A stretch of DNA of 62,147 bases, filler included, from Chlamydiales bacterium (GTDB lineage Bacteria; Chlamydiota; Chlamydiia; Chlamydiales; JACRBE01): the NCBI GenBank assembly GCA_016213235.1. It is 4 parts of 4 records of this genome, joined end to end, with 100 filler letters (N's around TTAATTAATTAA, not from the genome) between each part and the next. Parts side by side here need not be neighbours in the genome. Positions count along the whole stretch, not along the records: positions 56,099 to 62,147 come from JACRBE010000004.1; 3 more parts are not named here. One strand, 5' to 3'. The position numbers were made by a program. Positions 60,001-62,147 of this stretch are shown here, one piece after another. Numbering within the stretch: the first letter of the stretch is position 1; every line of letters starts with the position of its first letter.

Positions 60001-62147
60001 TAAAGACCTTTTTGAATCTTTTGTTGATCGACTCCCTTCTCGCGATAATCCATCCTACAAAGATTATTGTTTAGCAGAGAATATTGATATAAATGAACAA
60101 GATCCATTCATCTTGCTAACTACGATTGGAAAAAGAGGACCTTCTTCTTTTGTTTTTGAAGCAGATTACATGAAAACCTTCGGTGCTGAAGACGTTAAGC
60201 GATTTCGATCTGAATTGAATTTGACAATAAAAGAATTCTCTCTTGGTTTTATGGTGGCAGAAAAAACACTTATTTCAATTGAAGGAGGGAAAAGTGCGGG
60301 ACGAGATGTTATGAAACGTCTGGAATTATATGTACGATTCCCATCTGTAGCCTTATTTGAATTTCAAAGAAACAGTGCACAAATTCATATAGAAAAAAAA
60401 CGTTTTGTTGAAAACATACTGAATCACAAGATTAATGAAAACACGATCTGAAAAAGTTCCTCTGAATTGCTAATACCTATGTTGAGGAATTCTCGCGTGT
60501 TTTGTTATGTATAAGGCTCCCAAAATAGTTATACAAAGCAAAAAGGGATAAATAAAAGGAGCCATTACAAGATGTGTCTGTTGATAAATAAATAAAGAGA
60601 GTCCAATAGCCGGGTGTCCTATACACTGGGCCCCTAGCGCTTTACCAAACGCCATCGTAAGATAGGTATTATTTCTCCCTGCAATCTCTTTTACATAAGA
60701 TTGAAAGGGAGCTGCAAAGGCAGTTCCGATAGTCACAAATATCAATCTTATTAAAAAGAGGCTAAGGAGTGTGGGTGTTTGCAGTAGAAAAAAACCAAGT
60801 GGTGTCAACAGAATAAAACTCAGTAGGGAGGCATATATTAGCCTTTCTTGTCCTATTTTTACACCAATCCATCCAAAAACAGGTAACAAGATAAGATCAA
60901 GGACCATGAGAAGCAAGCAAATGCTTAGCATAGATAAATAAGTCGTTTCCATTACAAGAGGGAAATAAATATTCATTACGCTAGTGATAATATCATAGTT
61001 AGCATATGCAAAACCAGTGAGGAGTGTAATTAAAAGCACCTCTTTTTTATATGTTTTAATGAATTGTAAAAAAGAGATCTTTTCTTGTTGTACATTTATA
61101 TAAGACTGTTTTTTCTTCCTGAAAAAGAAAGCTATAAGGCCACATATTGCTCCAAATAAGAACAACAGGCGCCAATAGTTTTCTATCATATCAAAATAGA
61201 GAAGGATCACAACAAATGCAGTGGCTAAAATAGACCCCATTATTCCGCTCATTTCATAGATACTGCTCCACCACTCTTTTTTACTTGGATTGGTGTTTTC
61301 TAAAATTAACAAAGGAGCTCCTGTTGTTTCTCCTGCATAAAAAAATGAGAGGAAACTTCTAAACAAAACAATTAAAACAGGCGCTGCTATTCCGATGGTT
61401 GCATAGGAGGGTATAAGTCCGATTGCAGCGCTGCACATAGAGGTTCCAATAAGAGAGATATAAAGAGCTATTTCCTTACCATAGCGATTACTGATTGATC
61501 CAATGACATAAGCGCCGAGAGGTCTTGCAAACCATCCAAAGGGTGTAAAGAGGATAATGCAGCCCGTGAGATAGGAGTGCTTGGAGAAAAAGATAGCTGA
61601 AATAAAAGGGACGAGCAGCCCATATAAGGCTTTGTCAAAATGCTCTAAAATATTTCCGATACAGATTAAAAAAATCTGTTTCTTTGTTATGAGTGGCACG
61701 CTCCCTCCGCTAGTATTATCTAGATCAGGTCATAAGGGTTAAATCAATTGATCTTTTCAGCTAAAATATAGCACCCCTGGCGACACAAGCAAGTTTACAG
61801 GAATATCCTGATTATCGACAATGGCAGAAATTTCCGAGAAAACAGGATCGTAAAATATTAAAATATTTTATACTTGCCTTTTACAAGAAAAATACCAAAA
61901 CGGCTTATGAGTATATCTAATCATATCAAACGATTGTTTTTTGGATTTTCTCTTACTGCACCTTGGGAAGAGCTCTCTCCTCCTGCCAGGTTATTGAAGG
62001 AAGAGGACCGTCATTTGACCATTTATTTTCTTGGAAATGTTCCTCTTTTTTCTTTGGAAGGGCTACCTTTCCCCTCTTTTTCGATAGGAGCTGTTGGTAT
62101 CTTTGATCATTTGCTTTTTTTGCCACCCCATTATCCTAATGTCGTTA

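Follow-up and report, generated by a model that had tools for sequence, protein, structure and literature searches.

The window, by which we mean the whole analyzed stretch of 62,147 nt, carries an intact open reading frame on its minus strand (60470-61699) that opens with GTG, encodes 409 amino acids and begins inside a TPP riboswitch. The preliminary description of this locus had reported a full TPP riboswitch overlapping the start codon of a 409-residue transporter of the major facilitator superfamily (MFS), and our searches agree on both counts, with a riboswitch match of 63.0 bits, a start 16 nt inside that match, an MFS_1 domain and a 12-helix model. The features at the locus, together with one TPP-dependent enzyme encoded elsewhere in the window, are as follows:

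61684..61788, minus strand: TPP riboswitch aptamer (RF00059), complete with P1-P5; Rfam match of 63.0 bits and covarying helices
61779..61783, minus strand: 5' strand of P1; columns 6-10 of the 39-aptamer alignment, with 84.6% of helix cells paired
61704..61708, minus strand: GGAGG, a Shine-Dalgarno-like sequence that overlaps the 3' strand of P4, as read from the sequence
61697..61699, minus strand: GUG start codon, which is the core of the 3' strand of P1; sequence and alignment columns 115-117
60470..61699, minus strand: 409-amino-acid MFS transporter of an MHS-related clade, predicted TPP importer; Pfam, 12-helix model and clade tree
12451-14229, minus strand: DXS, a TPP-dependent enzyme

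The aptamer aligns to the full RF00059 model (positions 1-105) above the gathering threshold of 54.3 bits, which places it within the Rfam TPP riboswitch family, and it is the sole Rfam match in the whole window. We aligned it within a set of 39 homologous aptamers of our own selection, in which 92.8% of the cells are paired and 11 of 20 pairs show two-sided changes; none of 500 shuffles reached this level of pairing, and slid controls gave 31-60%. The 39 aligned aptamers keep the TPP fold. The reading frame starts within the 3' strand of P1, only 4 nt beyond the GGAGG. An in-frame TGA shuts the frame just upstream of the GTG, and no ATG, GTG or TTG lies in frame between this start and the conserved TM1 motif; an AUA 9 nt downstream of the GUG may be an alternative start. 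In the ligand-free state, the window segment is predicted to have no unusual stability (z -0.07) and to display P2-P5, with the Shine-Dalgarno and start bases only partly paired, as expected of a switch that requires TPP to close. No terminator was found in the leader, and a promoter scan gave 3 sites versus 5.9 expected, none of them upstream on the strand of the gene; the contig has 359 nt of sequence upstream of the aptamer. No other letters were seen in one assembled DNA run that is possibly the source of this DNA. On the opposite strand, a split HipA-type toxin-antitoxin module (58912-60451, plus strand), composed of a HipA_C kinase gene and then a Couple_hipA gene, ends 18 nt from the MFS stop codon.

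The encoded protein matches Pfam MFS_1 at 66.6 bits (cut-off, 33.4; E value, 2.4e-18), and its AlphaFold2 model shows 12 membrane helices (pLDDT 94) and superimposes on OCTN2 (9pdq_A) with a Z score of 36.5 and an rmsd of 2.9 over 376 aligned residues. Both the MFS profile and the 12-helix two-bundle fold thus assign it to the major facilitator superfamily. Structure searches do not indicate the cargo, since they returned generic MFS folds only, at 7-18% identity; the human SLC19 thiamine transporters are absent among the fold-search matches listed, an absence that excludes nothing. A sequence search of the PDB gave no match for the window protein, the clade profile gave weak SLC22 and phosphate-transporter matches there, and the ESM Atlas held unnamed MFS clusters only. 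The best NCBIfam models are those of the MHS family, but the protein stays under every curated MHS cut-off. With TIGR00883 (cut-off, 443.45 bits), it scores 163 bits, a core chlamydial member 207 and a Rickettsiaceae-type member 125, so that the transporter clade spans 125-207 bits, whereas the control YhjE reaches 510. In our tree, the window protein and 148 chlamydial homologues form one clade, which sits on its own long stem outside the generic MHS proteins. Six residues (H20, Y148, Y235, N243, D268 and R318) are common to the chlamydial and sister proteins and not shared by eight generic MHS outgroups, and the window protein retains them all. It also has the general MHS residue set (E19, D22, R114 and E124), which suggests proton coupling. 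One clade member, P0036, carries a C-terminal UbiE-type methyltransferase domain, a fusion or read-through seen on one contig.

To gauge how widely the arrangement recurs, we scored 400 Chlamydiota genomes, of which 238 are matched by the window protein and 193 fall within the threshold that we set for the clade (E value, 1e-35); none of the 29 genomes of one coded family, f4, whose genome size of 1.0-1.2 Mb suggests Chlamydiaceae, holds a match. We then looked for RF00059 in the genomes of the 150 best homologues, 144 in all. The riboswitch lies directly upstream (≤450 nt) of 84 of these homologues, 72 of them with a match over the cut-off, and one gene upstream of another 13, while 53 have none. 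The 97 linked loci (97/150 homologues, in 95 of the 144 genomes) account for 97 of the 122 TPP-riboswitch matches in these genomes, and the linked genomes represent 17 coded families, from all parts of the tree. The recurrence of the riboswitch-transporter pair in other chlamydial families is therefore stronger than first described. A local aptamer profile recovered 96 of 96 linked loci, a partly circular result because the profile was built from most of the linked aptamers, and gave one weak match among the 53 unlinked homologues, 7 of which have an upstream stretch shorter than 500 nt. The tree mixes linked and unlinked genes within one clade, which suggests that the link is ancient and was lost several times. 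In a sub-clade of 12, the MFS gene follows an amino-acid permease gene and has no riboswitch, and in one genus that carries a riboswitch followed by PQ-loop and TPK genes, the MFS gene is without a riboswitch.

This distribution bears on the automatic names of the homologues ("MHS family, proline/betaine transporter," "MFS permease" and ProP-like), which would make the gene a general osmolyte or amino-acid transporter with an incidental riboswitch link, or else the copy in this genome could be a decaying one. The 53 unlinked homologues fit such a reading, as does the divergence of the window protein, in which 11 of 57 strongly conserved columns are altered (median, 1; same-genus copy, 14) and which has D71N in the loop 2-3 motif. 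Nevertheless, the link is kept over 17 families and in a second phylum (see below), the ProP model (NF007927) scores 80 bits against a cut-off of 544, the two generic MHS paralogues in the genome branch outside the clade, and the only RF00059 match in the genome is the one at this gene. We also think decay of the window copy unlikely, given that the frame is intact, the clade residues are kept and position 71 varies in the sister clade as well. We regard a general ProP-like function with a chance riboswitch as very improbable.

The homologous loci display two leader layouts, short and long. Where the leader is short, AGGGAG within the aptamer itself serves as the ribosome-binding site and the start codon follows a few bases later; at 6 loci of different branches, the window included, the GUG in P1 is the sole start. 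A variant that creates GGAGG is present at 5 of these 6 loci versus 12 of 59 others (Fisher p 0.004, with kin that are not independent), a count from which we dropped the 16 of 80 rows missed by the pattern, one of these being read by eye. Among long leaders, 18 of 45 contain at least six bases complementary to the 5' strand of the aptamer, versus 3.0 expected from shuffles, and the complementary segment precedes a Shine-Dalgarno hairpin. E. coli thiM has a similar segment, complementary to the aptamer 5' strand, before its Shine-Dalgarno hairpin. Both layouts point to translational shut-off, so the earlier proposal of control at translation start gains support from the position of the Shine-Dalgarno sequence and start inside the aptamer and from the complementarity in long leaders.

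In order to look beyond the Chlamydiota, we ran a profile search over 1.84 billion representatives, which yielded sister clades that include proteins labeled Rickettsiaceae, Holosporales, Rickettsiales, Candidatus Tisiphia and Candidatus Babeliales. Scanning metagenomes with an alignment of 9 proteins turned up at least 17 loci, whose proteins belong to the sister clade and are Rickettsiaceae-like. An RF00059 match over the cut-off lies directly upstream of the MFS gene at 7 of the 17 metagenome loci listed, and the local profile adds 2; another 5 of the 17 are either fragmentary or preceded by no more than about 200 nt, L251 and L254 have ample upstream DNA and no riboswitch, and L262 has room and no clear match. 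The pair is thus not specific to chlamydiae, as it occurs on Rickettsiaceae-like contigs too. The protein of locus L249 is 98% identical to one named Candidatus Megaera venefica, and no protein named for the genus Rickettsia is among the 86 relatives listed, most of which are unnamed. In the named genome collection, the best 80 of 149 relatives bear chlamydial, "Verrucomicrobia" or unclassified titles, none of them proteobacterial. Viral contigs held no relative; plasmids held generic MHS proteins only, at about 27% identity, among the matches listed (25 of 1,499 records), and none at an E value of 1e-25 with a Rickettsiaceae protein as the query.

Cells obtain TPP by the action of TPK on thiamine or of ThiL on TMP (PMC3020362). 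Searches of the present genome, which is 81% complete, found TPK and did not find ThiE, ThiD, ThiC, ThiG, ThiL, ThiB, NMT1 or the PnuC/PnuT family, in agreement with the gene content first reported (TPK present; ThiC, ThiD, ThiE, ThiG and NMT1 absent). A weak ThiM-family match is located in a 506-amino-acid ORF that, by its sequence, we take to be YjeF/NnrDE. The genome carries three TPP-enzyme domains, one of them in the DXS of the window. Given its TPK, thiamine would serve here; in a genome of the same genus (97% complete), the riboswitch-MFS pair is present, and TPK and ThiL were not found.

We extended this comparison to a panel of 80 genomes of our own selection, made up of 65 linked genomes (part of the 98 linked genomes known), 7 unlinked carriers of one genus and 8 non-carriers. 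All 80 hold TPP-enzyme domains, and in none of the 80 does ThiB score over its cut-off. TPK is found in 17 of the 65 linked genomes, ThiL over its cut-off in 2 and neither in 46; both are missing in 25 of the 34 linked genomes with a completeness of at least 95%, and genome incompleteness would explain only about 4 of 65 such cases. An alignment-based search found TPK in the same 23 panel genomes. Thus, while the transporter co-occurs with TPK or ThiK-ThiL in this genome, it does so in only 19 of the 65, and the TPK found here is a minority case among linked genomes. With so few kinases, most carriers would have no use for free thiamine or TMP, and the lack of ThiB together with a full-length ThiD in only 3 of the 65 excludes precursor salvage for most of them. 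Since most carriers seem unable to use thiamine, TMP or precursors and yet keep a TPP-repressed transporter, TPP is the simplest cargo, and uptake of the finished cofactor from the host is probable, given that most of them apparently cannot activate the vitamin themselves. The preliminary description had proposed an importer of thiamine or TMP; a TPP-regulated importer of the thiamine pathway is upheld, but the cargo is probably not free thiamine, as 46 of 65 linked genomes are without TPK and ThiL, and TPP itself fits better.

Phylum-wide counts temper this argument. Among the carriers, 59 of 193 have TPK, compared with 74 of 207 non-carriers (74/178 without f4); TPK is thus missing in 134 of 193 genomes with the MFS gene versus 104 of 178 without it when f4 is left out. 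The f4 genomes are missing the MFS gene, TPK and ThiL alike. Together with the TPK-less non-carriers, they imply that another route to TPP or an unrecognized kinase must exist, which weakens any argument from absence. In seven genomes of this family (G003, G004 and G006-G010), we observed five TPP-enzyme domains each and no MFS, TPK, ThiL or ThiB match. The existence of such a route in TPK-less chlamydiae without the MFS gene is one reason to take seriously an importer of free thiamine (or TMP) that is converted to TPP in the cell. Others are the TPK of this genome and of 29 of the 98 linked genomes and the union of MFS and TPK genes in one riboswitch operon on a Rickettsiaceae-like contig (L247; riboswitch, MFS, PQ-loop, TPK). 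On the other hand, TPK is no more frequent in carriers (31%) than in non-carriers (36%, or 42% without f4; kin are not independent), 46 of 65 linked genomes have neither kinase, and the TPK genes under riboswitch control pair with a PQ-loop protein instead. In six genomes of one genus (L031-L034, L037 and L042), a TPP riboswitch precedes a 90-amino-acid PQ-loop/SemiSWEET-type gene and then TPK, probably a module for free thiamine with a candidate minimal importer, distinct from the MFS transporter and seen as well at L247:4850-5774. The logic of PnuT-ThiN resembles that of this module. On balance, we hold import of free thiamine to be rather unlikely, though a serious alternative to TPP import.

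Several linked loci contain additional genes. A ThiE-like gene stands between the riboswitch and the MFS gene at 13 of 150 loci; its product scores 100.9 against a ThiE cut-off of 145.1 (canonical chlamydial ThiE, 191) and is without three residues with a catalytic role, an Asp, a Ser and a Lys, that two canonical chlamydial copies and the solved ThiE share. A gene of the mitochondrial carrier family (PF00153) follows the MFS gene at 20 of 149 loci. Conversely, 29 carrier matches below an E value of 1e-40 were found in 401 genomes, 25 of them directly after the MFS gene, 3 not and 1 at a contig end. The full order of TPP riboswitch, degenerate ThiE-like gene, MFS gene and PF00153 carrier gene is found at L063-L075 and L267 (e.g., L069:1613-4524). 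The ThiE-like gene, the carrier gene and other partners were not found in the present genome (for the carrier, by a protein search; the PF00153 control had no match anywhere). Two more distant carrier copies provide a further connection to thiamine: at both loci (L271:2286-5101 and L272:2253-5001), a gene with a TPK domain and a long extension is directly followed by a tandem pair of mitochondrial-carrier-like genes.

The ThiE-like gene ahead of the MFS gene at those 13 loci, and membership in the same broad MHS family as ThiU, could be read as signs of an importer that supplies salvage synthesis with thiazole or HMP as a precursor. Use of thiazole would call for ThiM, ThiD and ThiE, but ThiE, ThiD and ThiM were not found here, and ThiD, the only one of the three searched panel-wide, occurs in 3 of the 65 linked genomes. 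The ThiE-like protein of the operon, moreover, is below the ThiE cut-off and without the three conserved residues. Finally, at L276:220-3853, a TPP riboswitch precedes thiM (read from its sequence likeness to L050), thiE, thiD and a different MHS-type MFS gene in a ThiU-like layout; that MHS protein is 21% identical to the window protein, and the genome has a member of the present transporter clade besides it. Precursor import hence seems most improbable to us. The same operon, with 25 of the 29 strong carrier matches directly after the MFS gene, lends itself to another alternative, in which the MFS protein, working with the ThiE-like and carrier proteins, would exchange TPP against TMP or thiamine or would expel damaged thiamine. 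The mitochondrial TPP carrier is itself an exchanger. A start codon hidden at high TPP fits uptake rather than efflux, however, and the two partners were found neither here nor in most carriers, so we consider an exchanger or exporter improbable.

Some riboswitches in our collection precede other genes. A partial TPP-aptamer match (30.5 bits; L273:2808-4752) lies directly upstream of transketolase, a TPP-using enzyme. At L020, L144, L039, L041 and L278, TPP riboswitches are followed by short or unrelated ORFs without a Pfam match or a recognizable thiamine function, two of which sit between the riboswitch and the MFS gene.

Taken together, we favor, with reasonable though by no means full confidence, an importer of host TPP that is shut off by TPP at translation start. 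The protein would be a secondary-active TPP importer of the inner membrane, possibly accepting TMP or thiamine as well, from a distinct MHS-related MFS clade of host-dependent bacteria that would comprise environmental Chlamydiota and Rickettsiaceae and, to judge from the names of proteins, Holosporales and Babeliales. At high TPP, the ligand would bind the aptamer and clamp P4 and P1, the helices that here include the GGAGG and the GUG start, and would thus keep the ribosome from loading; at low TPP, the weak P1 would open and the transporter would be made. The imported host TPP would then serve transketolase, the 2-oxoacid dehydrogenases and DXS. More tentatively, and with doubts prevailing, the clade may be the first dedicated bacterial secondary TPP importer, common to unrelated intracellular lineages (Chlamydiota, Rickettsiaceae, Holosporales and Babeliales) and part of a cofactor-theft operon, in which the mitochondrial-carrier-family protein might carry TPP through a further membrane, be it bacterial, vacuolar or that of host mitochondria, and the catalytically degenerate ThiE might bind or process the phosphorylated vitamin.

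Such a transporter would speak to the question of how host-dependent bacteria get TPP. Rickettsiae, according to a metabolic reconstruction of Rickettsia (PMC5615194), depend on ThDP import, and no transporter for it could be named there. The present gene comes with a sharp prediction, namely, TPP and not thiamine, and hints at a substrate for a clade whose current annotation reads ProP-like or "MFS permease." TPP import would extend cofactor parasitism, so far ATP and NAD, to vitamin B1 and would show TPP riboswitches at work in reduced genomes. It would also link a vitamin regulon to the bacterial proteins of the mitochondrial carrier family, which have until now been considered as infection factors (PMC5621508).

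Among known systems, the closest in kind is ThiU (TC 2.A.1.6.12; HI_0418), an MHS-type MFS protein of thiamine gene clusters whose transport of hydroxyethylthiazole is an untested prediction (PMC10588857) and which is among the listed TPP-regulated transporters (PMC3766115, supplement 5; PMC6593275, table). An MFS-type bacterial thiamine transporter is accordingly no new category, as the preliminary description had thought it to be, since ThiU was already predicted (PMC10588857, PMC6593275 and PMC3766115). The searched text and files of PMC3766115 hold no mention of chlamydiae or Rickettsia. Like ThiU, the present protein is an MHS-related MFS transporter tied to thiamine genes and putatively regulated by TPP. 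However, ThiU sits in a thiamine gene cluster, whereas most carriers here are without salvage enzymes, and the transporter clade is, by sequence, far from the YhjE/ThiU group. This distance was measured via YhjE only, whose nearest known relative is said to be ThiU, a likely paralogue (PMC10588857): the window protein is 29% identical to YhjE over 201 amino acids, and the clade profile gives YhjE 182 bits versus 316-379 for sister-clade proteins.

ThiBPQ (TbpA-ThiP-ThiQ), an ABC importer that takes thiamine and TPP according to PMC3020362, shares with our candidate a riboswitch-regulated uptake that includes TPP, but it is an ATP-driven three-part system, unlike the single secondary carrier proposed here, and ThiB is not over its cut-off in the 80 panel genomes. 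PnuT with ThiN, ThiT, ThiV and CytX are likewise single-protein transporters found through TPP riboswitches (PMC6593275 and PMC3020362), yet they have other folds and other cargo, namely, thiamine or precursors; the PnuC family was not found in five genomes of the family to which this genome belongs. No description of the riboswitch-transporter pair was found in the open literature, although subscription papers (e.g., reviews of bacterial vitamin transporters), RegPrecise, TCDB and bioRxiv supplements may list members.

With the MHS transporters at large (ProP, KgtP, ShiA and TcuC; TC 2.A.1.6), the proteins share the motifs GN..E..D in TM1 and R..Q.....E in TM4, the WR motif and the best NCBIfam models, but they stay below every curated cut-off and stand apart by their long-stemmed clade and their own residue set. 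The regulation resembles that of TPP riboswitches that sequester the ribosome-binding site, in that the long-leader homologues have an anti-aptamer segment before the Shine-Dalgarno hairpin. Direct sequestration of the Shine-Dalgarno sequence inside the aptamer was reportedly described by Rodionov in 2002 for other phyla. What sets the present locus apart from such riboswitches is that the start codon itself is a strand of P1, as it is at 6 loci of different branches.
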